A DNA stretch of 64,000 nt from a bacterium (GTDB lineage: Bacteria; UBA8248): positions 64,001 to 128,000 of the forward strand of contig CBDATS010000004.1 in the NCBI GenBank assembly GCA_965200245.1, written 5' to 3'. The position numbers and the translations under genes were made by a program. Numbering within the stretch: position 1 is the first letter of the stretch; each line of letters begins with the position of its first letter. Below the pieces are notes generated by a model. It did not search any database, was not told the origin of the DNA, and saw only the letters and a list, made by a program, of their open reading frames with translations. Shown piece after piece: positions 7,727 through 51,444 of the stretch.

Positions 7727-8242
7727 ATGCGCATCGTCATCGACGGATACAACCTCATCCCCGCCATCCCCGAACTCAGGCGCGTGCTCCATCAGGACCT
7801 CGAAGCCGGACGCGAAGGATTGGTCGGGATGCTCGGGAACTATCGCCGAAATTCCAGCGGCAATCCCCGAATCACCGTCGTTTTCGACGGCAAACCCCAT
7901 CACGATCACGGGGGCAGTAAAAACGCGGGCGGCATCGAAGTGCTGTTCTCAAGGCACGAAATCGCGGATGTCCTTATCCTTCGCCTCCTTAAGGACCGCT
8001 ACAAGGGCACCGTTCTCGTCACTTCAGACAGGATGCTCGGCGAGGCGGCTGCTCCCTTCGCCTCGGCCGTTGTGAAAACGGGAGAGTTCCGGGACCGGCT
8101 CTACCAAGCGGCCTTCATGGAGGAAGATGACCAGGAGGATGAACCACCCAGGACACCAAGGCGCGATACGAAAAAGAAGGGCAACCCCAGACGCGCACCC
8201 AGAAAAAAGCGCAGGCGGAACCAGCAACTCAAGAATCTTTGA
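7727..8242 (+). CDS. NYN domain (YacP/Rae1-like) ribonuclease
   Basis: IVIDGYNL, VVFDG, ADxxI, LVTSDR motifs; basic C-terminal tail. Confidence 0.85.
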   Translation: MRIVIDGYNLIPAIPELRRVLHQDLEAGREGLVGMLGNYRRNSSGNPRITVVFDGKPHHDHGGSKNAGGIEVLFSRHEIADVLILRLLKDRYKGTVLVTSDRMLGEAAAPFASAVVKTGEFRDRLYQAAFMEEDDQEDEPPRTPRRDTKKKGNPRRAPRKKRRRNQQLKNL

Positions 8243-8456
8243 GGCAGATTAGCCTCAGACGCACCTCCTCTGTCATCTCAAACAATATCCAACCAGTAGA
8301 AATTATCGGGATTATCTGAGGGATGATGATCTGATGAGCAATCGGGACTTATGGGATGAAATAACAGGGGAGTTATCTACTTGAATCCGCAAGTCTTCAT
8401 ATCTTGATTTTTGCGTTTCCGGGTGTATCGTTTACGTCACAGGCGGAATTGCTGCC

Positions 8457-8506
8457 AGAACCGGTGCATGGGCCGCCTTCCTCCAATCAGGCCATACACC
8501 GGATCT
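8457..8506 (-). terminator. Hairpin downstream of NHLP gene inside the cassette (same at 20611..20660)
   Basis: CCGGTGCATGGGCC...GGCCATACACCGG imperfect inverted repeat about 40 nt past the stop. Confidence 0.45.
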
Positions 8507-8547
8507 GACTGTAACTCAGTGGGGCACTTTCGTACATAATTTCCTTT

Positions 8548-8808
8548 TTAGAAAGCATCATCCCAATCATAGTATGCGCCACTAGCGGCTTCCAACTGTT
8601 CCTCGGTGAGCCGGGACGGGGGCGGAAGGACGAGATAGCTGTTCTCGGCGTCGTCTTCCATCACATGCAGGTTGAAATTCTCCGGCATCGTTACCCCGAA
8701 CTCCTCCGATATCACGGCCTTCGGTTCAGAAATCAGACGGGCGCGGAACTCCTCACTGTCGCCTGCCTTCTCGATCAGGTGCTCGCGCATCTCGGTGACG
8801 GATTTCAT
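8548..8808 (-). CDS. NHLP-leader (nitrile hydratase-like leader / proteusin) RiPP precursor, core YYDWDDAF
   Basis: 86 aa. LIEKA-DSEEFRARLISEPKAVI...VMEDDAENSYLVLPP...LTEEQLEAASGA is the canonical NHLP leader ending in a double-Gly-type site; RBS AAGGAG upstream. Confidence 0.9.
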   Translation of the reverse strand: MKSVTEMREHLIEKAGDSEEFRARLISEPKAVISEEFGVTMPENFNLHVMEDDAENSYLVLPPPSRLTEEQLEAASGAYYDWDDAF

Positions 8809-8882
8809 TCTGGTCTCCTTTCCATGAGGAAATGAGCATGAGTGGATACCCCCGATGCCTTTTTTGCATCGTTGCCATGAAC

Positions 8883-8912
8883 AGGGTATGGGACATTCCG
8901 GTGGGAAAGCAA
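8883..8912 (-). promoter_or_regulatory. sigma70-like promoter of the NHLP precursor, conserved in all three copies
   Basis: TTGCTT-18-TACCCT here; TTGCCT-18-TATCCT at 50559..50588. Confidence 0.5.
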
Positions 8913-9062
8913 GAAATTTTTGACGTTTACTGGTGAGAAACAGGGTTCCGCCCGGAAGCCCGTCCGTGTGTCCCCTGCTCTCCCGGGAAACCGGCGGCCG
9001 AAGGCTTCGTTTTTCCAAATTCAGGTATTCAGACTTGTGGAATGAAGTATGTAATTCCCAAA

Positions 9063-9932
9063 TTATTCGGAGCGCAGTCTGGGGTCGAGTGTATCGCGCA
9101 CGGCGTCGCCGAAGAGGTTGAAGGCGAACACCGCGGCAGTGATGGCGAGTCCCGGAAAAACGGGAATCCACGGTGCGCTTTCGGCATATTCCTCCGCACC
9201 TCCCTGAAGCATCAGCCCCCAAGCGGGAGTGGGTTCCTGGACGCCCAGCCCGAGATAGGAGAGCGAGGCTTCGAGCAAGATGGCCCGACCGAGAAACGAA
9301 GTGAGCATGATCAGATACGGAGCCATGACGTTGGGAATCATGTGCCGACAGATGATGCGAACGTGCGCGAAACCCAGTGCGCGTGCGGCGTCCACGTAGG
9401 GAATTTCGCGAATCGCCAGCGCGCTCGATCGTACCACGCGGGCGCACCGAGGGATGAGCGGAATCGTGATTGCCAGGATCACGTTCTGCGTCCCCGTGCC
9501 GAATATGGAAACCACCGAGAGCGCCATGATGATGAGCGGAAACGAGATGAAAATATCCATGAAACGCTGGAAGATGAGGTCGAAGCGTCCACCGAAATAA
9601 GCGCTCCCCACGCCCAGGATGAGGCCTGCGGTGGAACCCAGGACGGAGGCCGAAAACCCCACGAAGAGCGCTGTTCTGGCACCGTAGACGATACGCGTAA
9701 AGATGTCGCGCCCGAACTGATCCGTCCCGAACCAGTGCGCGGCACCTGGTGCGAAGTGCATACTGTCAAAAGAATTCTGTACCGGGTCATAGAAGGTGAT
9801 GATCTCGGCAAAGGCGGCCAGAAGTATCATCACCAGGACGGAGCAGGCACTCACGGCACCCAGCGGTTTTTTCCGCGCCGTATCCTTGATCCTGTCAACC
9901 CATGAGCGTTCGGGAAGATTGTCGAAATCCAT
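9063..9932 (-). CDS. dppC: Peptide/nickel ABC transporter permease (DppC/OppC-like)
   Basis: HWFGTDQFGRDIFTRIVYGAR, YVDAARALG EAA loop, FNLFGDAVRDTLDPR; start uncertain (9932 or up to 9965). Confidence 0.9.
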   Translation of the reverse strand: MDFDNLPERSWVDRIKDTARKKPLGAVSACSVLVMILLAAFAEIITFYDPVQNSFDSMHFAPGAAHWFGTDQFGRDIFTRIVYGARTALFVGFSASVLGSTAGLILGVGSAYFGGRFDLIFQRFMDIFISFPLIIMALSVVSIFGTGTQNVILAITIPLIPRCARVVRSSALAIREIPYVDAARALGFAHVRIICRHMIPNVMAPYLIMLTSFLGRAILLEASLSYLGLGVQEPTPAWGLMLQGGAEEYAESAPWIPVFPGLAITAAVFAFNLFGDAVRDTLDPRLRSE

Positions 9933-9975
9933 TTCGGAGACGGCGAGGTTGCCCGGAGACGCGATGATCGATCTC

Positions 9976-10947
9976 CTAGCTGTAGCGTATGCGCGGGTCA
10001 AGCCACGCATAGAGAATATCGATGAACAGGTTCGTCAAGATGAAGACGACGGCCACGAGCATGACGAGGGATTGCGTCATGGTGTAGTCATGGTTCGTCA
10101 CCGATTCGACGAAGAGTTTTCCCAGGCCGTTGAGGTTGAAGACCTGCTCGGTCACCACCAGCCCGCCCATCAGGAAGGCGAATTCCAGGCCGATAATCGT
10201 CGCCACGGGCAAGAGCGAATTCTTGAGCGCATGGCGGTTGATGATGAGTTTCTCCAAAAGTCCCTTGGCGCGGGCGGTACGTACGTAATCCTCTCGCAGG
10301 ACTTCCAGCAGGGCCGAGCGCGTCATGCGCGTTGCGACGGCAGAATAGCGGTAGCCCGTCGCGACGGCCGGCCAGATGAGTTGGGAAATATTCGCCACCG
10401 GATCTTCCCATATCGGCGTGTAGTGAATCGGCGGCATCCAGGGGTTTCCAAAGAATTTCTGCGTCATGATCAAGAGGCCGAGGATAATCAGGATGCCCAG
10501 CCAGAAGGATGGCATGGCGATGCCTGCGATGCTGAACGAACGCACAACGTAGTCGATCCAGGTATCCTGTTTGATGGCGGAGATCGTGCCCAGCGGAATG
10601 GCAATGATGGTAGCCGTGAGCGTCGCCATGATGGCGACCTGAAGCGAAAGTTCGAAGCGCAGACCGATCTCATGCAGTATCGGTTTGCCCGTCCACATGG
10701 ATTTTCCCAAGTCGAACGTGAAGAATCCGGTAATGAAATCGATGAACTGCACGAAGATGGGTGCGTCTATCCCCAGATTCTTCTGGCACGTCGCTATCGC
10801 TTCCTTGTCCACGTACATGCCCGTGCCAGCCATGCGGAGTTCACACACGTCGCCGGGAATCAGGCGAAGCATGAAGAATACCAGCACCGCCGCTCCCAGC
10901 AGCGTAGGGAACATCAGCAGGATTCTCTTGATTGTGTACTTATACAC
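9976..10947 (-). CDS. dppB: Peptide/nickel ABC transporter permease (DppB/OppB-like)
   Basis: EDYVRTARAKGL, HALKNSLLP, DILYAWLDPRIRY. Confidence 0.93.
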   Translation of the reverse strand: MYKYTIKRILLMFPTLLGAAVLVFFMLRLIPGDVCELRMAGTGMYVDKEAIATCQKNLGIDAPIFVQFIDFITGFFTFDLGKSMWTGKPILHEIGLRFELSLQVAIMATLTATIIAIPLGTISAIKQDTWIDYVVRSFSIAGIAMPSFWLGILIILGLLIMTQKFFGNPWMPPIHYTPIWEDPVANISQLIWPAVATGYRYSAVATRMTRSALLEVLREDYVRTARAKGLLEKLIINRHALKNSLLPVATIIGLEFAFLMGGLVVTEQVFNLNGLGKLFVESVTNHDYTMTQSLVMLVAVVFILTNLFIDILYAWLDPRIRYS

Positions 10948-11010
10948 CTTTCGCGCCCTTGCATTTCAAACGATTGGCAACTCCCGGAACCGAAAACCCC
11001 AGGAAGCGTC

Positions 11011-11043
11011 TCCACCGTCGCCTGGTGTCCAGGCGACGGTGGA
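11011..11043 (-). terminator. Perfect 15-bp stem hairpin just after the SBP gene (mRNA stabiliser/attenuator)
   Basis: TCCACCGTCGCCTGG-TGT-CCAGGCGACGGTGGA. Confidence 0.6.
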
Positions 11044-11054
11044 AGTGATGCAGC

Positions 11055-12677
11055 CTATTTTTCGATCCAGACGTTGTCCAGGTGCTGGTTCAGGTAGTGG
11101 CTCGGCGCTATCTTCCAACCTTTCACATAGCTACGGTGTGGGTTGATCTTGTACCACCAGAGCGTCACGAATTGATGGGCCATCTCATCGAGTGCGCGCT
11201 TTTCGTACTTGCGCATGATGGCGCGCTGCTTGTTCACGTCGGGCTCGCGGTTCATCTGATCGTACCATTTGTCGAGCTGGCGATCGTGGTACTGCGCGTA
11301 CTGGTTGCCCGCCCTGTCGTCGGAGATGAATTTCGATACATCCACGAGCGGGTTAATGACCGACTGGCAGTTGAAGTCGATGGACACGTCGAAGTTCTTC
11401 TTCTTACGCAGCGTGGCATAGAAAGGTCCGGAGGGCTGCACCCACTGCTTGACCTTCAGGCCAATTTTGCGCCACTGGTCGATGACCCAGGTGCCCACAA
11501 CCTTATAGGGCTGGTCCACACCCCGGTTGTGCAAGGAGAACTCGAAGCCGCTCGGATAGCCAGCTTCTTTCAGCAGCCTTTTCGCCTCGGCGCGGGATTT
11601 GTTGATGTCCGGCCAGTAGCCGGCGATCTTGGTCAACTCCTCTTTCGTCGCCGCCAGAGGGTGTTTCGGGAAAACCACGCCGCCCACGGTCTTCACGATA
11701 GCGATGCGCGAGAGGTACTTCGATCCGCCCCAGCGATCGATTGCAAGCGTCAGTGCCCGGCGCACGCGTGCGTCGTCGAAGGGTTTGCGCTTGTGGTTGG
11801 GCGTCACCATGAGGTTGCAGTTCCAGTCGCTCTCCTGAACGGTGAGCTTGTCGCCCAGCGCTTTTTTCAGGTCGTCACGCGCCTTGGGCGGAAATCCGCG
11901 GAATTCGATGGCCGCGCGGTCGCCGCGGATGGCCTGGAGGCGGATCGCCATCTTGGGCGCAGAGATCGCTCGGTAGCCGTCGAGATAGGGTTTGCCCTTG
12001 TGGTGATATTTCTCATAGCGTTTGCCCTCGACGAATGCGCCCGGCTGGTGCTGCACGAAGCGGAACGCGCCCGTGCCGTTCACGTTCTTCTGGTGCCATT
12101 TGTAACCGTGCTTGTCGAGGTCAGCCTTCGAGTAGATGAAGTTGTAGGGCAGCGCCAGCGCAGGGACGAAGGCACCTGTGGGATATTTCAGCTTGAACAC
12201 CAGCGTCCGGGCGTCGGGTGCGGTGACTGATTTCACCATGCTGAAGAAAGCCTTGCGGTTGCTCTCAATGCCTTTCGGCGGATTGACAATCTTGTCATAC
12301 GTCGCCTTCACGTCCGCCGAGGTGAGTTTCTGGCCGTTGTGGAACGAGATGTCGTCGCGGATCTTGAAGGTGTACTTCGTGTGTCCTTCGGTCGGCTTCG
12401 GTACGCCACCTTCACACACATCGCAGACGAAATCCGTCGGTGATGCAGGGTTGTCGGGATTCACTCGAATTAAAAGGCTGTAAAAGGGACGAATGGGGTG
12501 AATCATCCCGAAAGTGGATTCGATATGGCCGTCGTAAGAGGGAATCTTGCTTCCGACGACAAACTTGAGCGTGCCACCCTTCTTGGGAGCCGCTCCGGCG
12601 GGCGGGGCAAAGCTCCACGCCGCCAGGGCGAGCAGTGACGCCCCTACAACCAGGAATACAAAACGAGTCTTCCACAT
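11055..12677 (-). CDS. ABC transporter substrate-binding protein, family 5
   Basis: Signal peptide, PKKGGTLK, FHNGQKLTSADVKAT, GTGAFRF, PFDDARVRRAL. Confidence 0.92.
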   Translation of the reverse strand: MWKTRFVFLVVGASLLALAAWSFAPPAGAAPKKGGTLKFVVGSKIPSYDGHIESTFGMIHPIRPFYSLLIRVNPDNPASPTDFVCDVCEGGVPKPTEGHTKYTFKIRDDISFHNGQKLTSADVKATYDKIVNPPKGIESNRKAFFSMVKSVTAPDARTLVFKLKYPTGAFVPALALPYNFIYSKADLDKHGYKWHQKNVNGTGAFRFVQHQPGAFVEGKRYEKYHHKGKPYLDGYRAISAPKMAIRLQAIRGDRAAIEFRGFPPKARDDLKKALGDKLTVQESDWNCNLMVTPNHKRKPFDDARVRRALTLAIDRWGGSKYLSRIAIVKTVGGVVFPKHPLAATKEELTKIAGYWPDINKSRAEAKRLLKEAGYPSGFEFSLHNRGVDQPYKVVGTWVIDQWRKIGLKVKQWVQPSGPFYATLRKKKNFDVSIDFNCQSVINPLVDVSKFISDDRAGNQYAQYHDRQLDKWYDQMNREPDVNKQRAIMRKYEKRALDEMAHQFVTLWWYKINPHRSYVKGWKIAPSHYLNQHLDNVWIEK

Positions 12678-12752
12678 AAGAAATCTCCTTTAGGTGCTCC
12701 GTAGAAATAAATACACCTCGAATCGCAGAACGAAACAGCGTCTTCAAGAATC

Positions 12753-13787
12753 TCATACTTCCGTACAGGCCACCCAATGGCCTGGTTTTATCTCCCGTAA
12801 TACAGGAATTTCCCTCGAACAATTCTCCACGGCGACCGGGCATCGGGGATGAAACACGCAGCCCGAAGGCGGATTTATCGGGCTCGGTACCTCTCCCGTG
12901 ACAATTCTGATGTCCCGTCCCTGCTCGACCTCCGGATCCGGCACCGGAACGGCTGAAAGCAAAGCCCTCGTATAGGGATGCATGGGATTATCGTACAACT
13001 CATCGCAATCCGCCAACTCCACGATTCGGCCCAGGTACATCACAGCCACGCGGTGGCAGAGGTGTCGAACCACACTCAAATCGTGCGCAATGAACAGATA
13101 GGTGAGGTTGTACTCGCCCCTCAAATCCTCGAGCAAATTGATGATCTGGGCCTGGATGGAAACGTCGAGGGCAGAGACGGGCTCGTCGCAGATGATGAAT
13201 TCGGGCTTGAGGCTCAAAGCGCGGGCGATTCCCACGCGCTGGCGCTGTCCGCCGCTCATCTCGTGGGGATACCTGTCCGCCATCTTGGGGTTGAGGCCAC
13301 ATACGCTGAGCAGTTCGTTGATTCTTTGTTTTCTCTTCCTGGCGTCGGGTTCTATGCCATGGACGTACATGGGCTCGTCAATCATTTCGCCGATCTTCAT
13401 GCGCGGGTTCAGCGAACTGCAGGGATCCTGGAAGATGACCTGAATTCTCTGCCGGTATTCACGCAGCGCCACGTGATCGAGTTTCGCAAGGTCCACGCCC
13501 TCGAAAAAAATCTCGCCTTCCGTGGGGCGTTCGAGCTGGAGGATGCACCTGCCCGTCGTCGTCTTGCCGCAGCCGCTCTCGCCCACGAGACCGAGCGTCT
13601 CGCCACGTCTGATGTGTAAATCCACGCCGTCGACTGCCTTCACGAGGCCGACGACCTTGTTGAATACAATCCCCTCGGTGATGGGAAAGTACATCTTGAG
13701 TCCCTTGACTTCCACGAGCACCTTCCCCGCCTCTCCGTTGCGGGAGAGTCGGGTGTGGCTTTCCAAGACGGGCGCGTCGGGAGTCAT
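12753..13787 (-). CDS. dppF: Oligopeptide ABC transporter ATP-binding protein (DppF/OppF-like)
   Basis: GESGCGKT Walker [20 protein letters not shown]-terminal GCVFHPRC...ACT. Confidence 0.93.
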
Positions 13788-13791
13788 CCTC

Positions 13792-14781
13792 TTATCCTCT
13801 CATCGTTTCGAGGTTTTCTTTTTCCCAGCAAGCCGATAGATGGCCGTTTCCCACCATCTCAAGCGGCGGAATCTCACTCGCGCACCTGTCCACGACGAAC
13901 TTGCACCGGGGCAGAAAAGAACAGCCCCCGCCCAGCCGCGTGAGGTCGGGCGGCTGTCCGTCGATGGGGTCAAGGCGCTTTTGTCTGGGCTGATCGAGTC
14001 TCGGCACCGAACTCAGCAACCCCAAGGTGTATGGATGCCTCGGTTCACGGTAAATGTCAGCCGCCAGACCGCGTTCAATGATCTTTCCGGCGTACATGAC
14101 GTTCACGCGATCCGCGTAGCGGGCCACCACGCCGAGGTTGTGTGTAATGATGATGAGCGCGACGCCCATGCGTTTGGTGAGGTCTTTCATCAACTCCAGA
14201 ATCTGAGCCTGAATGGTGACGTCCAGGGCCGTCGTCGGCTCATCAGCGATGATGAGCTTGGGCTCGCAGCAAAGCGCCATCGCTATCATCACTCTCTGGC
14301 GCATCCCACCGCTCAGGTGGTGCGGGTATTGCCGGAGGCGCCGCTCGGGCTCGGAGATACCCACCAAGCGAAGATATTCGACTGCTTTTTTCTCCGCATC
14401 GGCCCTATCCATGCCGAGATGGTGTTCCATGGTCTCGGTAAGTTGCAGCCCGATGGTCAGAACGGGGTTCAGGGAAGTCATGGGTTCCTGGAAAATCATG
14501 CCAATCTGTCGACCCCGGATGTCTCTGATCTGCATGTCGTCGAACTGAAGCAGATCGTGATCCTGAAAACGTATTGCTCCGCCCACGATGCGGCCAGGTG
14601 GATTGGGGATGAGACCCAGAATGGAGAGTGCACTGACGGATTTCCCACAGCCCGACTCGCCGACTATCGCCACCGTCTCGCCTTCCTCCACGTCATAGGA
14701 GATGCCGTTGACAGCTTTAACGATGCCGGAGGAGGTGAAAAAATGCGTTCTCAAGTCTTCGATTTCAAGAAGCGCGCTCAA
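13792..14781 (-). CDS. dppD: Oligopeptide ABC transporter ATP-binding protein (DppD/OppD-like)
   Basis: [32 protein letters not shown]. Confidence 0.93.
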
Positions 14782-14963
14782 AAATCCCTACCCTTCCAAA
14801 ACCAACCGATACAAATCGCAAAAATGTTATTTATTCTCGGGGGAATCCAAAGTGCCGAGAACCCTAAATATTGTTGAATGCAAAGTCAAACGCCAATTTT
14901 TATCTTTTGTGAGACCTTTCTCCGGAATTGCATGGATACCCGAAACGCTGCGCAAGCATCGTT

Positions 14964-17060
14964 TCAGGTGATGATGAGGGCATCGGCCACCAGGCATCCC
15001 CTACCCTTCTCGCGCAAGAAAACGGGGTTCAAATCCATTTCCTTGATTTGCTTGCGATAGGCGAAAGTGGCGTCTCCCAAGAGGCAGATGATCTCGCCGA
15101 GGGCTTTGACATCCAGTGGCCTGCGGCTACGGTGGCACCTGAAAATATCCCTGCACCGGAGTTCGTCAATCATATCGCAGGCGTCATCGAGCAAAAGAGG
15201 TGCCGTTCGCGCGCTCACGTCTCCCAGGAGTTCCACGTCTCTCCCGCCGAGACCGACTGTCACTATCGGGCCGAACTGTGGATCTCGCTTTACCCCAAGG
15301 ATGAACTCGACACCGTCCATCACTTGCTCCTGAAGCAGATAACCTTCCAGCGCACACTCCTCCCGGAGACTCGCGATCTCTGCGAGCGCGCCTTCGAGAG
15401 ACACCTCATCGCCGAGACCTGTTTTGACCAGCCCCCATTCCGACTTGTGGTGAATCGTCGAGGACACACCCTTCAATACCAGCGGAAAGTGCAGGTCGTG
15501 GGCCGCAAACCGTGCTTCCTCGATCGTCCGGCAGAATCGATGGGCCACAACAGGCAATCCGAAATCAAGAGCGAGCGCCAGAGATTTCGCCTCGTTCAGC
15601 GCCCCTGCGTCAGACAGTCTTTCCGCAATCGAGGGAGACGGCACAACACTGGCAGGAGGCGCGCCCTTCGCTTTTCTCCTCAGAATTTTTGCATACCGCA
15701 CTAGGGCCTCCGCCGCGCGGGCACAGCCGGAAATCGATTGAAAAGAAGCGATTCCCTCTCTGGCCAGAAGCCTGTGCGCATCCTCGGCATGGGGATTGAA
15801 ATAGGTCAGCATGGAAACGCCGGGATTCGTCGGCTTGAGTCTTACGATGGGTTCCACCCCCATCTCGGGCTTGAACTGCGCGCTTGAACCCACAATGGAG
15901 ATCACTGTATCGAACGATCCGCTACCCAGAAAAGATTCGAGAAAATCCGAATAGAGATGAATGTCCGCGATGGTGGTATCGAGCGGATTCACTATCCGCC
16001 CGAATCCGGGGTATTTTGCCTTGAGCCGGGCATGGAGAGCCTCATCCACCTCGGCGACTTCCAAGCCGAGTGCACCGCATTTATCGGCCATCAAGGCGCC
16101 CGCCCCGCCCGTCGTCGTAACGATTCCTACCCTTTCCCCTTCCGGGAGCTTCGAGACGCAGAACATATGGGCAACCTCGAAAAGTGCCTCCAGATCATCC
16201 ACCTGTGTGACGCCCCATCCCCGAAAGAGCGCCTTGTACACCCTGTTCTCCCCCACCATGGCCCCCGTGTGGCTCAAGGCCGCCTTCGCGCCCTCGCGCG
16301 CCTCACCCAGTTTGAGAACAACCAGAGGCTTTTCTCGCTGCAGGGCCTTTGTGAGAACTTTTTTGAGTTTCTCACCTTCGCGCACCCCCTCGAGATAAAC
16401 TGCAATGGCGCGGGTCTGGGGGTCGTCGATCAGATAGTCGAGGTAATCAGAAACTTCCAGATCCATTTCGTTCCCGCAGGAGATGAGATGGCTGAACCCG
16501 ATGCCGCGCTGTGTTGCGCGCGAAAGCAGCGCGCCGCCGATACTTCCGCTTTGACAGACCACGCCAATGTTGCCGGGCAACATCTCCTCAACGTCGAGCG
16601 CGATCAGGCCCGCGAGGTGGAAGTTGTGATGAAAGTTGTGCACGCCCGCCGTGTTTGGCCCGCATACGCGGATTCCGGAATCCCGTGCGATGCGCTGAAT
16701 TTCGGCTTCCAGACGCGTGCCCGTCTCATCCGATTCGGAAAATCCTCCTGTGTAGATGATGGCTGCTCCCACCCCTGCACCGGAGCATTCGGCCAACACG
16801 CCCGCCACACGCTCTCGTCCCACGGTGATGAAGGCGACATCCGGTATCTCGGGCAGCGCATCAAGACTCGGCGAACAGCACAGACCAGCCACATTTTCAT
16901 ATTTGGGGTTTACGGGATAGACCCGGCCCGCAAAGCCATGGCGCAGGAGATTCTTCACCACGCGGCCATTGAATTGCTCCAGGTTCGCCGACGCCCCGAC
17001 GATGGCTATTGATTCAGGTTTCAGAAGGCGCGCAAGGCTCTCTGCGGTTGTGGTCTGCAT
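14964..17060 (-). CDS. Acetate--CoA ligase (ADP-forming) family acyl-CoA synthetase
   Basis: SIAIVGAS CoA-binding domain, GPNT, QSG, phospho-His SHTGA, C-terminal ATP-grasp (HKSE, EMDLNP). Confidence 0.9.
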   Translation of the reverse strand: MQTTTAESLARLLKPESIAIVGASANLEQFNGRVVKNLLRHGFAGRVYPVNPKYENVAGLCCSPSLDALPEIPDVAFITVGRERVAGVLAECSGAGVGAAIIYTGGFSESDETGTRLEAEIQRIARDSGIRVCGPNTAGVHNFHHNFHLAGLIALDVEEMLPGNIGVVCQSGSIGGALLSRATQRGIGFSHLISCGNEMDLEVSDYLDYLIDDPQTRAIAVYLEGVREGEKLKKVLTKALQREKPLVVLKLGEAREGAKAALSHTGAMVGENRVYKALFRGWGVTQVDDLEALFEVAHMFCVSKLPEGERVGIVTTTGGAGALMADKCGALGLEVAEVDEALHARLKAKYPGFGRIVNPLDTTIADIHLYSDFLESFLGSGSFDTVISIVGSSAQFKPEMGVEPIVRLKPTNPGVSMLTYFNPHAEDAHRLLAREGIASFQSISGCARAAEALVRYAKILRRKAKGAPPASVVPSPSIAERLSDAGALNEAKSLALALDFGLPVVAHRFCRTIEEARFAAHDLHFPLVLKGVSSTIHHKSEWGLVKTGLGDEVSLEGALAEIASLREECALEGYLLQEQVMDGVEFILGVKRDPQFGPIVTVGLGGRDVELLGDVSARTAPLLLDDACDMIDELRCRDIFRCHRSRRPLDVKALGEIICLLGDATFAYRKQIKEMDLNPVFLREKGRGCLVADALIIT

Positions 17061-17097
17061 GGTCAGGAAAATTCCCTAAAACTCATGGCGGATAAAA

Positions 17098-18249
17098 TTA
17101 CGCTTTCGGCGGACGCTGGCTGAAAGGGCGCTCGTAGATGAGGGAGGCCAGGCGGTTTCTCAGAATCTCTGTGGACCCCCCCGCGATGGACCATCCGCGA
17201 ATCTTGCGGTAGAGAAACTCCAGTGGCATTCCGGTCGAAAAGCCATATCCACCGTGAAGCTGAATGGCGTCATCCGCCACTTGGCGCGCCATTTCGTTGC
17301 AGTAGAGTTTGGCGCTCGTCGTCTCCATTGCCGAGGGCAAGCCCGCGCGCGCGTTCGAGAGCGCCCGATAAAGAAGCAGGCGCGCCGCTTCGAGCTTCAC
17401 CCGCATGTCCGCCACCATCCATTGCACTCCCTGAAACTCGCAAAGGGGGCGGCCGAACTGGCGCCTCTCGCTGGTGTGGGCGACCGTCATATCGTAGGCC
17501 GCCTGCGCCAGGGCGAGACAGCGCGTGGCGTTTCCAAGACGCTCCACGTTGAACACGGGCATGAGCACCCGGAAACCCTCCTTATCGACCAGCACGTTCT
17601 CTATCGGCACGCGCGCGTTCTCGAAGTGAAGTGCGCAGTGCGCCTCCCCGCTCATGTAGTGTTCGGTCATTCCCTTCGTGAAGCCAGGCGTTCCCGTTTC
17701 CACCACGACGGCTCCGCAATCGCGCGTCCTGGGGCCGAAGCGGACGTAGACGACGAACAAGTCCGCGTGCGGGGCGTTTGAACTGAAGCATTTCTGGCCG
17801 TTGATGAGCACGCTCTCGCCGTCATATTCCGCCGTCGTTTGCAAGTCCGTGGCCGCCGAACCGGCGTCCGGCTCCGTCATGCTGATGGAAATGATTTTCT
17901 CCCCCCGACAAATCGGTGGCAGGAAGCGTTCTTTTTGTTCGGCAGAGCCCAACTCGTCAATCACACGGATGGGCCCCATATTCCCCATCTGCACTACATC
18001 GCCGCTGTGGGGACACACTTGAGAAACCGCCTCCATGACCAGGCAAGCCTCGAAAATCGATTGCCCTCCTCCATGTGGCTCGGCCACCGTCATCCCCATC
18101 ATCCCGTGCTCGGCCAGCACCTTCATCGAGCGTCTGGGATATTCGCCCGTTCTCGCATAGGAGAAGGCATCCGCAGCAAACTCTCTCAAGGCGAGTTCCC
18201 GGGCCGTCTGCCGGAACAGTCGGTCCGATTCTTCGAGCCTGAAATCCAC
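17098..18249 (-). CDS. Acyl-CoA dehydrogenase
   Basis: MTEPDAGS, NGQKCF, ERRQFGRPL, AIQLHGGYG, IAGGSTEI. Confidence 0.93.
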   Translation of the reverse strand: MDFRLEESDRLFRQTARELALREFAADAFSYARTGEYPRRSMKVLAEHGMMGMTVAEPHGGGQSIFEACLVMEAVSQVCPHSGDVVQMGNMGPIRVIDELGSAEQKERFLPPICRGEKIISISMTEPDAGSAATDLQTTAEYDGESVLINGQKCFSSNAPHADLFVVYVRFGPRTRDCGAVVVETGTPGFTKGMTEHYMSGEAHCALHFENARVPIENVLVDKEGFRVLMPVFNVERLGNATRCLALAQAAYDMTVAHTSERRQFGRPLCEFQGVQWMVADMRVKLEAARLLLYRALSNARAGLPSAMETTSAKLYCNEMARQVADDAIQLHGGYGFSTGMPLEFLYRKIRGWSIAGGSTEILRNRLASLIYERPFSQRPPKA

Positions 18250-19203
18250 GTAACTTCCCCTTCAGTCCATTCAGATGATACCGCGGCGAAATTCCAAATG
18301 CGTCCCCCGACCAGGCGGAGCATTCCTCCAAGACACGCGCGACGGCCCCAAGTTTTACAACACTTTCGATTTTAGGGCGAGGCGACATGCATGCCGGCAC
18401 AGTAGCTCTGGTACGGCAGCATCCCCGCTGATTCCGCTTTGACCGCCACCTGAATCGCTCGACAACTCCCGGATCCATCACCTGCCCAAGAGTCTGTGAT
18501 GACAGCACAAAAGAAGCCTGATTCCACGTCGGTTTCCTAGCTCCCTCATCCAATACTCCACATGTGGACGCCACGGTTGATGCAGGAATGTCGTTTGAAC
18601 GGTTCTGGGTCTTTTCTTTGGCCAGGGGCCGTGTCGTGTGTCCGGCCTCCTGATGCGGCGAGTCACAAGCCGCTGGCCCGGCGCGCAGCTGGTCCGGCTT
18701 GATGATGCGAACCGGAAAGCTCTCCGTCGCATCCGGGTTTTCCCGCTCCCGTCCCGTTGATCGTTTCCCTTTCCCGCTCTTCCGACCCGCTTACATTCCC
18801 GGATGTATCCATATACCAGCGGTTTGGACAGTGGGCACCGGCTTCTTTCTCCCCCGAATGAGCGAGGTGCGCATGATATTCCTCAGAATGACGACTATCG
18901 TGCCGGACGCGCGCTGTCTCAGACTCATCTGGACCATGACGGCAGGGCTCTCTGCGGCACTGAACAATCATCCGACGCCCGACCTCGCCTGGTGATCTGT
19001 ACCTATACTGATTCCACCATGTCTACACGAAATGCATAAGCTCGCTGGCCATTCTCCGAACGGAAAAACGACTCTGCCATCACGACTCAGAGATTTGTAA
19101 TCACGAAATTCATTCCCCCCTGAACTCTTTTTCTTTGAATATTCACCGACTTTCAGATATTTTGGAAAAAGCAAACGAACACTAGGAAAGAGGAGAACGG
19201 ACA

Positions 19204-19704
19204 ATGAATAAACCGTTTGTCGGAATTGTCCTTGCCTTGATGATTCTCGCTTGTTTCGCGCATGTCGCAGAAACGGCAGAGAGCGGAAGCTTCCGCCTCA
19301 TCGAAAACCACAGGCACGAGTTCAGCGTGATGGAACACGCTGACGCCAAGGTCACTGCAGGTCCGATGCACGGAACCGCCACTGTCGTCAAAAGCAGTGG
19401 AGGCCTCTTCGAAGAGGGTGAACACTATATTTCCACTTGCCTGGTCTACGCGCGACGCTCTCGGTTGGGTCTCGACCTGGAATCGGCTTGCAAGTTCACC
19501 AACAATGAAAAAGAGACATTCTACGCCCTGGCCCGGAGGCGAGCGGGCGACACAAAATCGGGTGGTGGCGGCAAGGGCGTCCAGAAACTCATTGGCGGTA
19601 CAGGGAAATACTCAGGCCTGGCCGGAGAATGTCCCTACACCAGCAAGTATCTGCCAGGCAAATGGATTGTTTCTACGGGAGATTGCACATGGAGCAAGCA
19701 ATGA
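19204..19704 (+). CDS. Secreted small beta-barrel hypothetical protein (paralog 1)
   Basis: Signal peptide ending AETA-ES; GGTGKYSGLAGEC motif; 4 conserved Cys; RBS GAGGAG. Confidence 0.75.
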   Translation: MNKPFVGIVLALMILACFAHVAETAESGSFRLIENHRHEFSVMEHADAKVTAGPMHGTATVVKSSGGLFEEGEHYISTCLVYARRSRLGLDLESACKFTNNEKETFYALARRRAGDTKSGGGGKGVQKLIGGTGKYSGLAGECPYTSKYLPGKWIVSTGDCTWSKQ

Positions 19705-19772
19705 TGCCCTGGAGGCTGCGTGGTACTGCCATCTTTCGGACAATGAATCGCATATAACCGGAGATTGCGAAA

Positions 19773-20282
19773 ATGAAAAAACTTGTCCACAGAACCTTCC
19801 TCGCGCTGGTTGTCGCGACCGCCATCGTTTGCGCCGTACCGCTGGCCTCGGCTGCCGAAAGCGGCACGTTCAAACTTCAAGGGTCATACCAACACAATTA
19901 CACTGTGCTGGACTTCGCCGGGTCGAAGATCACCTCGGGTTCGATAGCCGGAACGAGCACCATCATCATGAGTAGAGGCGGCCCATTCACAAAGGGAGAA
20001 CATTACAATGCCGCTTGCGCGGTTTACTCAAAACGCTCCGCCACAGAATTTGATCTCGAAGCTCCCTGCATCCTGTCCAGCAAAGCGGGCGACAAGATAT
20101 ATTTGATGGCGAAGAGACGCAGCGGCAACCTCAAGACGGGCGGCGGCGGCAAGGGCACCCACAAGATAATGGGTGGTACGGGGAAATACGCGGGCATGAC
20201 CGGAACCTGCTCCTACACAACCGCTTATCTGCCAGACCGATGGCTGGTCGTGTCTTCCGACTGTAAGTGGAGCAAGCCCTGA
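19773..20282 (+). CDS. Secreted small beta-barrel hypothetical protein (paralog 2)
   Basis: Signal peptide ending ASA-AES; GGTGKYAGMTGTC; colinear with 19204..19704, both end in DCxWSK. Confidence 0.78.
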   Translation: MKKLVHRTFLALVVATAIVCAVPLASAAESGTFKLQGSYQHNYTVLDFAGSKITSGSIAGTSTIIMSRGGPFTKGEHYNAACAVYSKRSATEFDLEAPCILSSKAGDKIYLMAKRRSGNLKTGGGGKGTHKIMGGTGKYAGMTGTCSYTTAYLPDRWLVVSSDCKWSKP

Positions 20283-20521
20283 CACTCCAGTGACGCGACG
20301 AGAGTCTTATGGAAAAACTGGATGCGCCCGGCGGTCAGGTTGCAGATTAATATTTGGCTTATCGGCACAAGACCTCTCGCCTGCCGGCCCGGATGCAATC
20401 AGCCGAATCGTACCTCCATTCCCCCCTATGGTTTTCAACCTCTCGTTTTCATGCAGATTTGGCGGGCCGCAGCTTAATGAATCTATCAAGCGGCGCGTTC
20501 GAATAAATCACTGAAAATTCA

Positions 20522-21213
20522 GGGAGTTATCTACTTGAATCCGCAAGTCTTCATATCTTGATTTTTGCGTTTCCGGGTGTATCGTTTACGTCACAGGCGG
20601 AATTGCTGCCAGAACCGGTGCATGGGCCGCCTTCCTCCAATCAGGCCATACACCGGATCTGACTGTAACTCAGTGGGGCACTTTCGTACATAATTTCCTT
20701 TTTAGAAAGCATCATCCCAATCATAGTATGCGCCACTAGCGGCTTCCAACTGTTCCTCGGTGAGCCGGGACGGGGGCGGAAGGACGAGATAGCTGTTCTC
20801 GGCGTCGTCTTCCATCACATGCAGGTTGAAATTCTCCGGCATCGTTACCCCGAACTCCTCCGATATCACGGCCTTCGGTTCAGAAATCAGACGGGCGCGG
20901 AACTCCTCACTGTCGCCTGCCTTCTCGATCAGGTGCTCGCGCATCTCGGTGACGGATTTCATTCTGGTCTCCTTTCCATGAGGAAATGAGCATGAGTGGA
21001 TACCCCCGATGCCTTTTTTGCATCGTTGCCATGAACAGGGTATGGGACATTCCGGTGGGAAAGCAAGAAATTTTTGACGTTTACTGGTGAGAAACAGGGT
21101 TCCGCCCGGAAGCCCGTCCGTGTGTCCCCTGCTCTCCCGGGAAACCGGCGGCCGAAGGCTTCGTTTTTCCAAATTCAGGTATTCAGACTTGTGGAATGAA
21201 GTATGTAATTCCC
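20522..21213. mobile_element. Non-autonomous TIR-bounded NHLP cassette, copy 2, with 8-bp target-site duplication
   Basis: Identical by eye to 8368..9059; flanked by AAAATTCA at 20514..20521 and 21214..21221. Confidence 0.85.
20702..20962 (-). CDS. NHLP-leader RiPP precursor, identical to 8548..8808
   Basis: Same 86-aa translation ending ASGA-YYDWDDAF. Confidence 0.9.
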   Translation of the reverse strand: MKSVTEMREHLIEKAGDSEEFRARLISEPKAVISEEFGVTMPENFNLHVMEDDAENSYLVLPPPSRLTEEQLEAASGAYYDWDDAF

Positions 21214-21249
21214 AAAATTCAGGGTTCCAGTAGCTGAAAATCAAAAGGT

Positions 21250-22887
21250 TCATGGGTTTTCCCACGAAATCGACCCTACAGGAATAGGGCGCGCCCAAAA
21301 ACCATCTTCAGCTTTTTTGACGAAAACATTCACCCGCCAGTTCGCGTCGTCAGATTCTGGATAATCCACCCGAAAATGCGCGCCCCGGCTCTCTGTCCGC
21401 GTAAGGGCGGCCTCCACCACTGCTTGTGCGCTTAAACACATGTTCTCCGCCTCCAGGGCCTCCACCAGCCTCGCTGGTTCGCTGCCCCCGCAACCGGCCA
21501 AGCCGCTCTGGACATCTGCGAGTTCGTCCCTCGCCTCTGCGAGCAGGCCCTCCTCGCGCACGATGCCTGCGTTCTCCCAGCAGATTCGCTTGATCTCACG
21601 GGTAAACCCTACGGCACGGCTCATATTGCCAGAGCGCGCCGCGAGGGCATCGGCATGGCTTCGGGCGAGTGCGGGGTCGAGTTTTCCGCTCGTCTGACGC
21701 GCGTATTCGCTCGCGGCCTTCGCCGCGCGCCAGCCCAGCGTGTGAGCCTCCGTGAAGGCGTTGTTCGAGAGACGGTTTGCCCCGTGCGCGCCGGCACTCG
21801 CCTCCCCCGCCGCGTAAAGGCCGGGCATGGCAGTGGCGCCCGAGCCTTCTATCGGCACCCCGCCCATGAAGAAATGGGCCTTTGGCGTGACAAATATCTC
21901 GCTGCTATGGGGCGAAATGCCCCTCCTGGCGAAGAGTTTCAAGTTGTCCGGCGCAAAATGCTCCAGATACTCAAGCGAGATGCCGGACAGATCCATCTGC
22001 ACGGCACCCTCCACGCCGCCGCCCTGCATGAGTTCGAGATAGACCGCCCGCGCCATCAGATCGCGCGTGGCGGCACCTCCACCGGGCACGTCGCGCAGGA
22101 TGTCCTTTCCATCCCGGTTCAGGAACCGCGCCCCGAGCGGGAACAGCGTGGGCGCCACGACCATATTGCTCTCGGGCCGCTTGATGACGGCCGGATAGAA
22201 CTGCACGAATTCCATATCCGAGAGCGCGAGGCCAGCCCTCAGCACCATGCCGAAGGCATCTCCCGTGATGCCGCCCGCGTTGGTGTTCTCCGCAAAAATC
22301 TGCCCCGCCCCGCCCGTGGCCAGAATGGTGGCAGGGGCGGAAATGGCGTAAATCTCCCCGCTTCTCGTGTGAAAACCCAGGATGCCCCGGCAGACATCCT
22401 CATCCACGAGCAAATCGACGGCCATGATGTTCTCGAGAATGCGCGCCGAATCGGCGTCGAGTTTCCTGCGCAGCGGCCTCGCCACCTCCACGCCCCAGTT
22501 CCTGACCGGGTAGATGCCGCGATCGCGATTGTGACCGCCCTGGGGGTGCAAGTCGAACGAGCCGTCCTCGCGCGTGAGAAAGGGGATTCCCCACTCATAC
22601 AGATCGCGAATCCGCGCGGCGGAATCGGCGCACATGGCATGGGCGACGTCCGGGTGATTGAGGTGGGCACCGCCTTCCAGGGTGTCTTCCAGGAACAGGG
22701 CCGGGCTGTCGTCTGGAGCGAAATTCGCCGAATGTCCCGCCCGGGCCATCACGATGTTGCCCGAATTCCCCGGGAACTGCTTGCAGACCAACAGCGCGTC
22801 CACGCCACTCTCCATGGCGGCGACTGCGGCCGTCATGGCGGCGGGTCCGCCGCCGAGAATCAACACGTCACAGGAGAGGGTTTGCAT
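21250..22887 (-). CDS. SdhA/FrdA/NadB-family FAD-dependent oxidoreductase
   Basis: ILGGGPAA, LATGGAG, MEFVQFYP, HFFMGG, HGANRL, RTESRGAHFR. Confidence 0.88.
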   Translation of the reverse strand: MQTLSCDVLILGGGPAAMTAAVAAMESGVDALLVCKQFPGNSGNIVMARAGHSANFAPDDSPALFLEDTLEGGAHLNHPDVAHAMCADSAARIRDLYEWGIPFLTREDGSFDLHPQGGHNRDRGIYPVRNWGVEVARPLRRKLDADSARILENIMAVDLLVDEDVCRGILGFHTRSGEIYAISAPATILATGGAGQIFAENTNAGGITGDAFGMVLRAGLALSDMEFVQFYPAVIKRPESNMVVAPTLFPLGARFLNRDGKDILRDVPGGGAATRDLMARAVYLELMQGGGVEGAVQMDLSGISLEYLEHFAPDNLKLFARRGISPHSSEIFVTPKAHFFMGGVPIEGSGATAMPGLYAAGEASAGAHGANRLSNNAFTEAHTLGWRAAKAASEYARQTSGKLDPALARSHADALAARSGNMSRAVGFTREIKRICWENAGIVREEGLLAEARDELADVQSGLAGCGGSEPARLVEALEAENMCLSAQAVVEAALTRTESRGAHFRVDYPESDDANWRVNVFVKKAEDGFWARPIPVGSISWENP

Positions 22888-49519: not shown

Positions 49520-50668
49520 GGATTCAAACCCTGCCTCCTGCTCAAAAGAAAGATGTCCTCATTGAGAGGCGAACAAAATGTCAATTTGAGCACATTAGTA
49601 ACACTTTTAGAGTCCCCCCGCAAAACGCAGGCATATGAGGGGCCAATCACCAAGATTCATCTCATCTGGCGAAGCCATCACTGCGCAATGCGTCGCAATT
49701 CTCGGACGCAAGGGCAAGTTCCGGCAACGCGTCCTCTATCATCATTTCGTTCTTGATTCGCTGGTGTCCTGCTTTGCCGGGATTGCAATCCTCGGCAAGA
49801 CATCACTCGTAGCCCGCGAAACAGAACCCCGGATATATAAGGCGCGGAATATCCCGCAGAAGGAAACGATGTTCCAGGCCTGTCGCAACCGATTGGTGAT
49901 CCTGCCTCCCACAGTGTGCCTGCTTCATTTGGCGAGTTGTTTCATATAAGGAATTTGATTGCCTCTCCTTTGACACAAACAAGAGTACGGATATATGTAA
50001 TCAGACTTTGCAGGAGGTGAGGATAGGGAAAAACTTGAGAAAGTGTTTGTCAACTTTCGGTTATAATTCCCTTTCGAAGGGAAGCAACCTAAAATACCGC
50101 CGATGGCCGATCCTTATACCGGAAAGGCCATGCAAGCGTCGCTGTTTCAAGAAAAAACCCGACCAATGTCCGCCCGCCAACTATAGTCTCTCAAGCACCT
50201 TTGCAAGTGCAACATTTGAATTCTTCAGACCCTCCGTATTCTCGGCCATCGTTTCCATGGTTCGGTGGAGAGCCTTTCACAACATCCACAATAAACCTGG
50301 CAAGTTGGGAAAATAATGCCATGGAAATTGCATAATCCGCAATGTTCGGTTTTGCTCTTGTATTTTCAAACTGACCCACTACCTTGTCTTTTGGTTTGTG
50401 GTTTTTTGCGGATCCACGTGATTGCTACTTGGCGAGCGCACCACTAGAAGAGCACAGGAGTCAACTCTGCGAACCCGACAACCCTGTTCAGGCAATAGAT
50501 GTGCACCTGTCTGTTCGCAATAATGAAATAAAAAACGAGAAAAACGTCAACAAATTTCTTGCCTTTTCATCGGAATATCCCATATCCTGCTCATGACAGC
50601 GATGCAAAAAAAAACGAAAGCATCGCGGGTATCAACCCATACTCATTTCCTGAGGACAGGAGACCGAC

Positions 50669-50926
50669 ATGAAATCCATTACCGAGATGCGCAATCACCT
50701 GCTCGAGAAGGCGGAGGTCAGCGAGGAGTTCCGCGCCCGCCTGATCTCTGACCCGAAGGCCGTGATATCCGAGGAGACCGGAATCACTCTTCCGGATGAC
50801 TGCAACCTCCATGTCGTGTCGGATGACGCGGAAAACGGCTATCTGGTGCTTCCGCCTTCGCCCCGGCTCACCGAGGAACAGCTGGCGTCCGTCCAGGGCG
50901 GATATTACAATAGGATATTTGACTAG
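50669..50926 (+). CDS. NHLP-leader RiPP precursor, diverged paralog, core YYNRIFD
   Basis: 85 aa; leader closely similar to the cassette copies, ending LTEEQLASVQGG; RBS AGGAG. Confidence 0.9.
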   Translation: MKSITEMRNHLLEKAEVSEEFRARLISDPKAVISEETGITLPDDCNLHVVSDDAENGYLVLPPSPRLTEEQLASVQGGYYNRIFD

Positions 50927-50929
50927 AAT

Positions 50930-51001
50930 GATACACCCGGCAACGCAAAAACCGGGGAATCAGGATATCAGGTCTTGCGGGATTTCAGTATGTGATTCCC
51001 C
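50930..51001 (+). repeat. Diverged terminal-repeat end of the NHLP cassette (third copy)
   Basis: GATACACCCGGCAACGCAAAAA...ATCAGGATATCAGGTCTTGCGGGATTTCAGTATGTGATTCCC resembles the reverse complement of 8368..8432 and 9017..9059; followed by AAAATTC as in copy 2. Confidence 0.7.
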
Positions 51002-51018
51002 AAAATTCGGCAGGGGAC

Positions 51019-51444
51019 TCAGTCGAAATCGTGTTGATGGTGTTGCTGTTCGTGCCACACTTTGCCGAGGGCGTGAATAACGTCCTCGGCAGTGATGATC
51101 CCCAGAAGTTCCGTTGGGTCCTCCCTGCTCACGACGGGCAGTCGTGATATGCTCCTGTCGCCCAGCTTCGCCATTACCGAATCAAGCGACTGATCCAGAT
51201 GGGCGTGCATGATGTATTTCTTCTTCGCAATCTCGCTCAAGGGCCTGTGCAGAATGCCTGCAGCCTGCGCCTGGCTGAAGTCGTAGTTGCTGGCCATTCC
51301 GGAAAGTCTCCCGTTCGCGTTCAGGACGGGATAGCCGGAAATGGTGCTTCCCCTCGTTCTTTCTATCGCCTCTTGTATCGTGATGTCCTCATCCGGTGCG
51401 TCGAACATCAGTTCGGACACTACATTCGTATTGAGAATCACCAC
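51019..51444 (-). pseudogene. Chimeric remnant: FitB/VapC PIN N-terminus fused to a CBS pair (ClC C-terminus-like)
   Basis: VVILNTNVVSELMFDAPD resembles the VapC/FitB start (ILDTNVVSELM); then GYPVL...G, SRLPVV...LLGIITAEDV CBS motifs. Confidence 0.7.

Follow-up and report, generated by a model that had tools for sequence, protein, structure and literature searches.

The 64,000-nt window analysed here (C4:64001-128000 of the study genome G000) holds two identical copies of a 692-bp unit, a small cassette that has spread to some twenty sites in a single bacterium associated with a sponge. The best overall explanation, which we consider very probable, is that the unit is a mobile insertion cassette (MIC): a non-autonomous derivative of an IS1595 insertion sequence (IS), carrying a gene for an NHLP-type precursor of a ribosomally synthesised and post-translationally modified peptide (RiPP). 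We hold the narrower statement, that this is a real transposable cassette of IS1595 type, with strong confidence. The G000 assembly comprises 3.68 Mb in 15 contigs (C numbers below) and is 95.8% complete with 8.1% contamination; positions without a contig prefix are those of the window.

The two window copies were found to be 100% identical over 695 nt (8368-9062 and 20522-21216), which corresponds to the 692-nt unit plus three flanking A common to both sites by chance. The terminal inverted repeats (TIRs) of the unit pair at 32 of 43 positions, and GGGA opens both. Copy 2 is flanked on both sides by AAAATTCA, a perfect A+T-rich 8-bp duplication. The unit contains a single 86-aa open reading frame (ORF), which matches the NHLP leader family TIGR03793 at 69.1 bits (cut-off 50.9), and a tblastn search with an IS1595 transposase detected no transposase within the unit, where there is too little room for one. 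An earlier reading of the DNA (the original prediction) had claimed precisely these features, namely an identical pair with imperfect inverted repeats of ~43 bp, the duplication around copy 2, one NHLP precursor gene and the absence of a transposase, and all of them hold. Its statement that the precursor is the only cargo is correct for the 692-bp form and fails for longer cassette variants, which carry an acetyltransferase fragment or a second NHLP gene.

Further copies, which the original prediction had anticipated, are present elsewhere in G000. A blastn search with the unit returned 34 clustered loci, and a degenerate TIR pattern allowing at most 3 mismatches gave 31 matches; as a control, the reversed pattern gave 0 matches in all 42 family genomes. 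A TIR profile search of G000 identified 32 ends at E < 1e-7. Complete, two-ended elements number 11 and range from 599 to 1005 bp. TIGR03793 has 39 matches in G000, 34 of them above cut-off, although four of these 34 represent only two loci, each entering the count twice since C15:1-4816 repeats C2:1023-5838 as its reverse complement. These two segments are 100% identical and inverted over 4816 nt, and reflect either a genuine inverted repeat or a duplication introduced in assembly. The NHLP genes are scattered over five contigs, and 12 of the 37 tblastn matches to the window NHLP protein lie between two TIRs. Three pairs of near-identical elements were found (100%, 99.8% and 100% over 695, 957 and 1005 nt); the two members of a pair stop matching at the element boundaries, have differing flanks and occupy unrelated sites. 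The congeners (n = 22) have 0-5 NHLP matches above cut-off each, of other types, and the DNA of the unit was not found in 40 relatives except for 48-50-nt matches to the hairpin region in 3 genomes.

We compared the 8-nt flanks of the 11 two-ended elements, and these agree at 8, 8, 8, 7, 7, 6, 6, 4, 4, 3 and 2 of 8 positions; the 3-of-8 element rises to 7/8 when its mismatched first base is assigned to the element. Mismatched-flank controls (n = 110) have a mean of 3.06, and the observed sum was not reached by any sampled derangement. The flanks are 77% A+T. Recurrent A+T-rich 8-bp duplications, as expected from the original prediction, therefore stand far above the control. Relatives also provide the empty sites that it had proposed to look for. 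At C4:1426664-1427368 (duplication AAAAATTC), the flanks are contiguous in five relatives (G004, G006, G008, G010 and G022), and in G004 a single AAAAATTC is located exactly at the cassette position. This site lies inside a 328-aa ORF, which is therefore interrupted in G000. For the 958-bp copy at C8:198493-199450, homology continues through the site in both relatives aligned, while copy 2 is absent from the corresponding place in all seven relatives examined.

The cassette ends are, by sequence comparison, of IS1595 type. When one genome per species was searched, the only other match to the exact degenerate end pattern was OY843749.1, a metagenome-assembled genome of Arenicellales. It contains three 1229-bp IS1595 copies encoding a 309-aa transposase (PF12762 147.5, PF12760 28.1 and NF033547 186.1 bits), together with six 214-bp miniature inverted-repeat transposable elements (MITEs) that are internal-deletion derivatives retaining the start of the transposase gene. 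Identical 8-nt flanks surround 5/6 of these MITEs, with three distinct 8-mers; several agree in their flanks over 10 nt, as would be expected had they entered a different repeat. The ends of the OY843749.1 IS agree with the commonest cassette TIR form at 22/26 and 24/26 positions. The available text on ISApl4, also of the IS1595 family, describes GGGG-initial ends and 8-bp A+T-rich repeats (PMC12561309). Congeners possess many IS1595 genes (36-52% identity), and at 7/10 loci examined at least one end opens with GGGAATTATATAC, then diverges from the cassette ends. An autonomous IS1595 with the same TIRs, the presumed partner in the original prediction, thus exists in OY843749.1 and was not found in G000. 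A transposase candidate from G002 was rejected, being a fragment only. As far as sequence comparison can show, the duplications, bounded identical pairs, empty site and matching IS1595 ends establish that the family moved by transposition, and they support the original proposal of a mobile cassette spreading RiPP precursor genes.

The same ends are found around other cargo. The exact TIR pattern also occurs in one metagenome contig, WASW01024416.1, where it bounds a 1642-bp element (L087:1073-2714) with a perfect CAATAAAG duplication. This contains genes for a DNA methylase (PF01555, 78.5 bits) and a BsaWI-like restriction enzyme (26.1 vs cut-off 26.2), and so has the appearance of a restriction-modification system on an insertion cassette. 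Related ends (GGGAATTATATACTTAAATCCGCA...) delimit elements in three congeners: 729 bp in G022 (L083:1557-2285) with a 141-aa ORF, 1090 bp in G012 (L082:1501-2590) with a 155-aa ORF that is zinc-ribbon-like and has a hydrophobic tail, and 901 bp in G006 (L084:1437-2337) with a 196-aa ORF. No Pfam match was obtained for the ORFs of these three elements. As the ends bound varied cargo elsewhere, the end family appears to be a general vehicle for passenger genes, of which the NHLP version is the one multiplied in G000.

For the cargo, TIGR03793 gave scores of 69.1 and 65.2 bits, both above 50.9. Residues 18-71 of the 86-aa protein, which has no cysteine, match nitrile hydratase alpha (PF02979, 38 bits), and a Shine-Dalgarno AGGAG is present at 8815-8819, 7 nt ahead of the ATG. 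The copy-1 leader terminates in ...EAASGA and is followed by a short aromatic core, YYDWDDAF. Cassette leaders in general end in SGG, SGA, QGA or similar and are followed by a short, wholly different tail (QYDPFGGRIP, YWGDVPNHV, APWYNDGWPE, IDRWGSRDYGP, YYNRIFD and EWVWH are further examples), giving ~25 distinct short cores rich in Tyr, Trp and Asp. Among 16 analysed genes, the variable stretch directly follows GG, GA or GS in 12, and in 14 it is in frame with a stop after 4-15 residues.

For 16 intact clade-1 genes out of the 37 tblastn matches (second clade, pseudogenes and duplicates excluded), we obtained a leader dN of 0.089 and dS of 0.259, corresponding to a dN/dS of 0.34, with 110/119 pairs below 1. 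Mean pairwise identities, determined from four non-identical complete elements out of the 11, are 0.38 for the core, 0.89 for the leader, 0.76-0.83 for the untranslated interior and 0.87-0.91 for the ends. The core thus changes faster than DNA without evident constraint, which points to diversifying selection or a local exchange process of the kind described for prochlorosins (bioRxiv 10.1101/2020.03.09.984088). A search of 5.8 billion proteins yielded 11 clusters of the cassette type; 8 are G000's own, and the others are 70%, 55% and 45% identical.

Translated NHLP genes of congeners (11, from 11 congeners) fall into two conserved types with cores LCCCW and TQTWQDFANAWNSLNQNS; these are 40-46% identical to the cassette type and are without such ends. 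In many congeners an LCCCW-core NHLP gene is located ~7 kb from a 435-533-aa ORF containing an NHLP-like domain (for example G010:C1:3820099-3827674 and G013:C4:3525846-3533441). This arrangement is probably the native NHLP cluster of the genus. No LCCCW-type NHLP cluster was found in G000.

G000 does encode an NHLP-type peptidase-ABC exporter (C8:219.6-225.6 kb), at a distance from the precursors; the exporter gene scores 902.2 against TIGR03796 (cut-off 853.3). Adjoining it, together with a cassette-end remnant and an NHLP gene fragment, is a 318-aa ORF at C8:217754-218710 (L070:5754-6710; associated stretch L070:5510-5560). The ORF has a weak SQHop_cyclase_C match under the cut-off (E 2e-4) and no PDB sequence match better than E 0.13. 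Its structural look-alikes are prenyltransferase/AstC-like alpha-alpha toroid proteins (score 0.96), and it is a possible modifying enzyme. A literature search on AstC with RiPPs returned nothing useful.

Public sequence data were used to look at the copy-1 locus. Window 7900-9500 is present in five public runs of two studies, at 0.91-0.96 of sampled words; two of the five are labelled sponge metagenome, and the best-matching run possibly represents the source sample. Two RNA libraries from one study gave contigs that match 8305-8656 and 8693-8865 with 0-1 differences, taking in the whole ORF and reaching 63 nt into copy 1's own flank on the left. All four runs analysed also contain a variant with 78 different letters in place of the 53 nt around the core. 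The RNA-library contigs are consistent with transcription of several copies. They leave 8872-9033 and most flanking genes without cover where DNA runs do provide it, which is not evidence on the transcript start.

The 3' hairpin of the original prediction was confirmed: the segment folds at -48.4 kcal/mol (z = -3.25), and 1/200 shuffles fold as well. The 5' hairpin claimed alongside it could not be upheld, as shuffled sequence folds just as well as the 5' region (z = -0.26 and -0.72). Rfam gave no match in the unit, and one sub-threshold His_leader match in a related element. Look-alikes of the 3' hairpin, ~50 nt long, occur off-cassette at C4:706371, C4:590319, C4:1055335, C5:733779, C5:817630 and C8:133045, and in relatives G004-G006. 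Their presence at non-cassette sites suggests a genus-wide repeat resembling a repetitive extragenic palindrome (REP) or a terminator. Based on the constrained leader, the hypervariable core, the presence of an NHLP exporter and the RNA-library contigs over the gene, the cargo looks functional.

The longer variants offer an indication of where the cassette came from. In the 958- and 1005-bp forms, the 3' end of a GNAT acetyltransferase gene (its final 59 codons) stands between the left arm and the NHLP gene. An intact GNAT gene (PF13302, 52 bits) is found at C15:340171-340908, where its neighbour in tail-to-tail orientation is an NHLP gene without TIRs, and the 958-bp element is colinear with this locus over its positions 198-896. 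The G000 GNAT protein is 79% identical to its G010 orthologue, and in G010 there is no NHLP gene beside the GNAT gene. From the colinearity, the C15 GNAT-NHLP locus is a possible capture site, and the 692-bp form would be a deletion derivative.

In the mechanism that we favour, the cassette has kept only the ~45-nt IS1595 TIRs, with the NHLP gene, its ribosome-binding site, the upstream region and the 3' hairpin replacing the transposase. The sequence evidence shows that copies were inserted by an IS1595-type DDE transposase mechanism into A+T-rich 8-bp targets, which were duplicated in the process, and that these insertions raised the NHLP precursor stock of G000 to ~30. The transposase would have acted in trans, from a source outside the assembly, and copy 2 would be a recent insertion, probably derived from copy 1 or an identical copy. 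Once translated, the precursors may be acted upon by a modifying enzyme encoded elsewhere, and would be cleaved behind the GG/GA motif and leave the cell through the C8 exporter, so that each copy would yield a different peptide of 4-15 residues rich in Tyr, Trp, Asp and Gly. We consider it somewhat probable that the peptides are made and matured. A further proposal is put forward only tentatively, namely that the system is a transposon-borne generator of a peptide library. Transposition would provide copies and dispersal, a local process would rewrite the ~10-codon core, and one promiscuous maturation/export system would turn these into some 30 short aromatic peptides in a sponge symbiont. 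The local process could be selection or, alternatively, a targeted mechanism of insertion/deletion or exchange. Because the same ends occur on the IS1595 element of the unrelated Arenicellales genome and on the metagenome restriction-modification cassette, cassettes could pass within host-associated communities. If so, their passage between community members would be a general route to 'orphan' RiPP precursors.

A number of observations weigh against a mobile and functional cassette. The count from the TIR profile is partly circular, since the profile was built from 25 of those ends. Only one TIR lies within 900 nt in 12/37 of the NHLP tblastn matches, and none in 13/37. At least one duplication, including that of the third copy in the window, is not TIR-bounded, and recombination and decay therefore also shape the family. 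A convincing target duplication is missing in 4/11 two-ended elements, among them window copy 1, whose flanks AATAACAG / AAATTATT agree at 2/8 only. Clean empty sites were obtained at 2 of 6 sites examined: relatives align through the copy 2 site, yet the left homology is only ~25 nt, and at copy 1, C4:1371916 and C4:1517641 the relatives have unrelated or variable-length intergenic DNA and are uninformative. No cognate transposase was found in G000 by tblastn or with PF12762, which revealed one intact, non-matching IS1595 plus fragments. The intact gene, at C14:1818-2717 on a 10-kb contig, is 42% identical to the OY843749.1 enzyme, and only about the first 10 nt of the left end are common with the cassette TIR. 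Given the completeness and contamination of the assembly, the transposase may be unassembled, lost or foreign.

Further points of this kind concern the product. The exporter's neighbours fall under their cut-offs (TIGR03797 683.9 vs 709.4, TIGR03794 81.9 vs 156.2). G000 contains no SPASM domain and 18 radical-SAM matches, none within the exporter cluster, and no modifying enzyme for the precursors could be assigned in this genome; a radical-SAM gene beside one cassette belongs to a flank conserved in all 22 congeners. Proteusins are NHLP-leader peptides with radical-SAM epimerisation and related changes. With no maturase assigned, the label "proteusin-type" given by the original prediction is not supported. 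Nor is the promoter that it had placed in the unit, as a sigma-70 consensus scan gave no promoter-like site upstream of the ORF and its sole match lies inside the ORF. A conserved TTGCTT-N17/18-TAnnnT upstream of the ORF, read by eye, might at a guess be a promoter-like signal. As RNA libraries may contain DNA, the contigs obtained from them are no proof of transcription.

These points could be accommodated if the cassette is mobile and its cargo a selfish or decaying passenger, the NHLP genes having no useful product and core hypervariability reflecting relaxed decay. The missing maturase and consensus promoter would fit, as would the near confinement of this NHLP subtype to G000 (8/11 database clusters) and the several copies that are frameshifted, extended or truncated (C4:1517832, 123 aa; C4:571249; C2:26427/26504; C2:3379). 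However, the leader dN/dS of 0.34 with 110/119 pairs below 1 speaks against this reading, and a core identity of 0.38 next to untranslated DNA at 0.76-0.83 is not predicted by neutral decay; the position of the variable stretch after GG/GA/GS (12/16), in frame with a stop after 4-15 residues (14/16), likewise argues against it, as do the dedicated exporter and the RNA-library contigs that cover the ORF. We regard a mere passenger as unlikely. Less likely again, and very improbable in our view, is that a transposase of another family moves the cassettes, the IS1595 likeness being coincidental or convergent. Several IS families produce 8-bp duplications, and G000 lacks a matching IS1595 copy; set against this are the 22/26 and 24/26 end positions common with a bona fide IS1595 element, and the GGGAATTATATAC opening that cassette ends have in common with 7/10 congener IS1595 loci.

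An ordinary paralogous family, spread by segmental duplication and homologous recombination with the inverted ends as a conserved regulatory or structural motif, would account for an 872-nt duplication and a 606-nt internal identity that are not TIR-bounded, for the TIR-less copy adjoining the intact GNAT gene and for the 13/37 NHLP matches without a nearby TIR. Recombination would give neither perfect 8-bp duplications at three sites nor an empty site with a single 8-mer within a gene, and these ends also flank the IS1595 transposase gene and MITEs of OY843749.1, the methylase/restriction cargo with its perfect CAATAAAG, and ORFs in three congeners. This alternative is already largely refuted by the empty site and we consider it highly improbable. 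We find it barely credible that the pair in the window is an artefact, with a single locus entered twice by the assembly or a repeat collapsed. It is true that the copies show 100% identity at a distance of 12 kb, that the assembly has the contig-end duplication C2:1023-5838 / C15:1-4816 and that short-read contigs break within the repeat; in the runs analysed, no contig spans the whole element. Nevertheless, the contig that contains the two copies is 1.54 Mb long, their unique flanks differ, each flank has congener orthologues, and copy 2 has its own target duplication. In addition, DNA-type contigs of two studies (X1 and X4) run from each unique copy-1 flank 27-30 nt into the element with 0-1 differences, although these entries fall below the 31-nt bridging threshold of the read analysis, which was done on copy 1.

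Mobile insertion cassettes are an established class, to which MIC231 of Bacillus cereus belongs. The G000 element fits this class. As far as the available accounts describe them, such cassettes likewise have IS-type inverted repeats around one or a few passenger genes, no internal transposase, target duplications and presumed movement in trans. The qnrS2 and qnrD cassettes are presented as mobile insertion cassettes in the accessible parts of PMC3913671 and PMC5444012. There the cargo is a resistance gene, whereas here it is a RiPP precursor; the element has moreover been amplified within one chromosome (11 complete and many partial copies), and its cargo has a hypervariable module, each copy encoding a different product. 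With IS1595 elements and their MITEs (ISApl4, and the 1229-bp IS and 214-bp MITEs of OY843749.1), the cassette has in common, from what the available descriptions give, GG-initial repeats, 8-bp A+T-rich duplications and many copies. It differs in having no transposase gene and an interior that is a captured host-type gene rather than an IS deletion remnant.

Among RiPPs, the closest parallel is with the prochlorosin (ProcA) genes of marine picocyanobacteria, which, according to portions of a preprint, are co-located with the Y1 single-strand transposase TnpA_REP (bioRxiv 10.1101/2020.03.09.984088); a later note by its authors states that the evidence neither supports nor rejects causation. In the portions available, these genes are likewise numerous and scattered; their leader is conserved and their core hypervariable, the latter altering mostly through small insertions and deletions, and one maturation/export machinery is presumed and a transposase-related mechanism suspected. 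In contrast, each gene in G000 is enclosed in its own DDE-type element, for which inverted repeats, target duplications and an empty site are on hand; the leader is NHLP rather than Nif11, and the cores are without the lanthipeptide Cys/Ser/Thr pattern. NHLP/Nif11 precursor systems with a dedicated three-gene exporter are said to go back to Haft and colleagues in 2010. Likenesses to G000, within the descriptions to hand, include the same kind of leader, a GG-type site, multiple precursors per genome and an exporter away from the precursors; the difference is that the precursors here are on transposable cassettes, beside which no cyclodehydratase, LanM or SPASM enzyme was found, although none was searched for there. 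The NHLP leader is described, in the available sections of PMC4603692, as a nitrile hydratase alpha relative without metal-binding cysteines and with a GG-type cleavage motif.

Text searches of the literature found no printed description of a RiPP precursor inside an insertion cassette, in agreement with the original prediction, which knew of none. What was found, in parts of the respective papers, is a MITE interrupting a cyanobactin precursor (PMC3428304) and general remarks on transposases near clusters (PMC4603692). Genomes in which RiPP precursor genes are scattered by the dozen, such as those for prochlorosins and other NHLP/Nif11 peptides, are familiar, and the closest printed proposal for the multiplication and dispersal of such genes is the TnpA_REP association. 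In the cassettes the mechanism is visible and testable, because each precursor gene sits in a discrete element with repeats, duplications, an empty site and an IS family. As the cassette precursors are far from biosynthetic clusters, cluster-based genome mining can be expected to miss them. For natural-product discovery, the family offers ~25 distinct short cores in a sponge-associated bacterium, and for transposon biology it indicates that insertion cassettes can bear diversifying cargo besides resistance genes.

Table 1. Positions of the cassette copies, their parts and related stretches.
Feature	Position	Strand	Remarks
Cassette copy 1, 692 bp	8368..9059	no strand	probable non-autonomous IS1595-type mobile insertion cassette
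Left TIR, copy 1	8368..8412	+	GGGAGTTATC...; pairs with 9015-9059 at 32/43
Right TIR, copy 1	9015..9059	-	GGGAATTACA...
NHLP-family RiPP precursor gene, copy 1, 86 aa	8548..8808	-	TIGR03793 and PF02979 matches
Long hairpin 3' of ORF, REP-like or terminator-like	8454..8509	-	folding compared with shuffles
Cassette copy 2	20522..21213	no strand	100% identical to copy 1
Target-site duplication AAAATTCA, left copy, 8 bp	20514..20521		perfect
Target-site duplication AAAATTCA, right copy, 8 bp	21214..21221		perfect
NHLP precursor gene, copy 2	20702..20962	-	identical to 8548-8808
Third, partial cassette	50526..51000	no strand	single weak TIR, ending at 51000
GNAT-related stretches	C15:340171-341446; C8:198690-198921; C4:570948-571253; C15:316170-316423		intact locus and cassette variants

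On the minus strand, an Opp/Nik-type ABC permease gene (9063-10010) has its stop codon 3 nt before copy 1, and copy 2 sits 36 nt from the stop codon of a gene for a flavoprotein resembling fumarate reductase / L-aspartate oxidase (21250-22887, minus). A composite transposon built from both window copies was ruled out: the outer flanks have no common duplication, and the genes on both sides of copy 1 are syntenic in congeners. The third cassette carries an NHLP gene at 50669-50926 on the plus strand, with core YYNRIFD and a protein 72% identical to that of copy 1. It is part of a segmental duplication, 872 nt long and 99% identical (window ~50526-51390 = C15:389344-390215), that has no TIR boundaries.

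The spacer matching window 8243-9062 varies from 29 to 3741 nt among 16 congeners with both flanks aligned. In several of them it holds other repeats ending in a common motif near the permease stop codon, and the copy-1 intergenic spacer therefore has the appearance of a place where small insertions accumulate, a hot spot. Immediately to the left of copy 2, ~146 nt (window 20323-20470) have non-syntenic matches of 71-75% in G002, G008, G010 and G012. Elsewhere in the window, a 122-nt direct repeat (32349-32470 and 33432-33553) shows 71% identity between copies 1083 nt apart.

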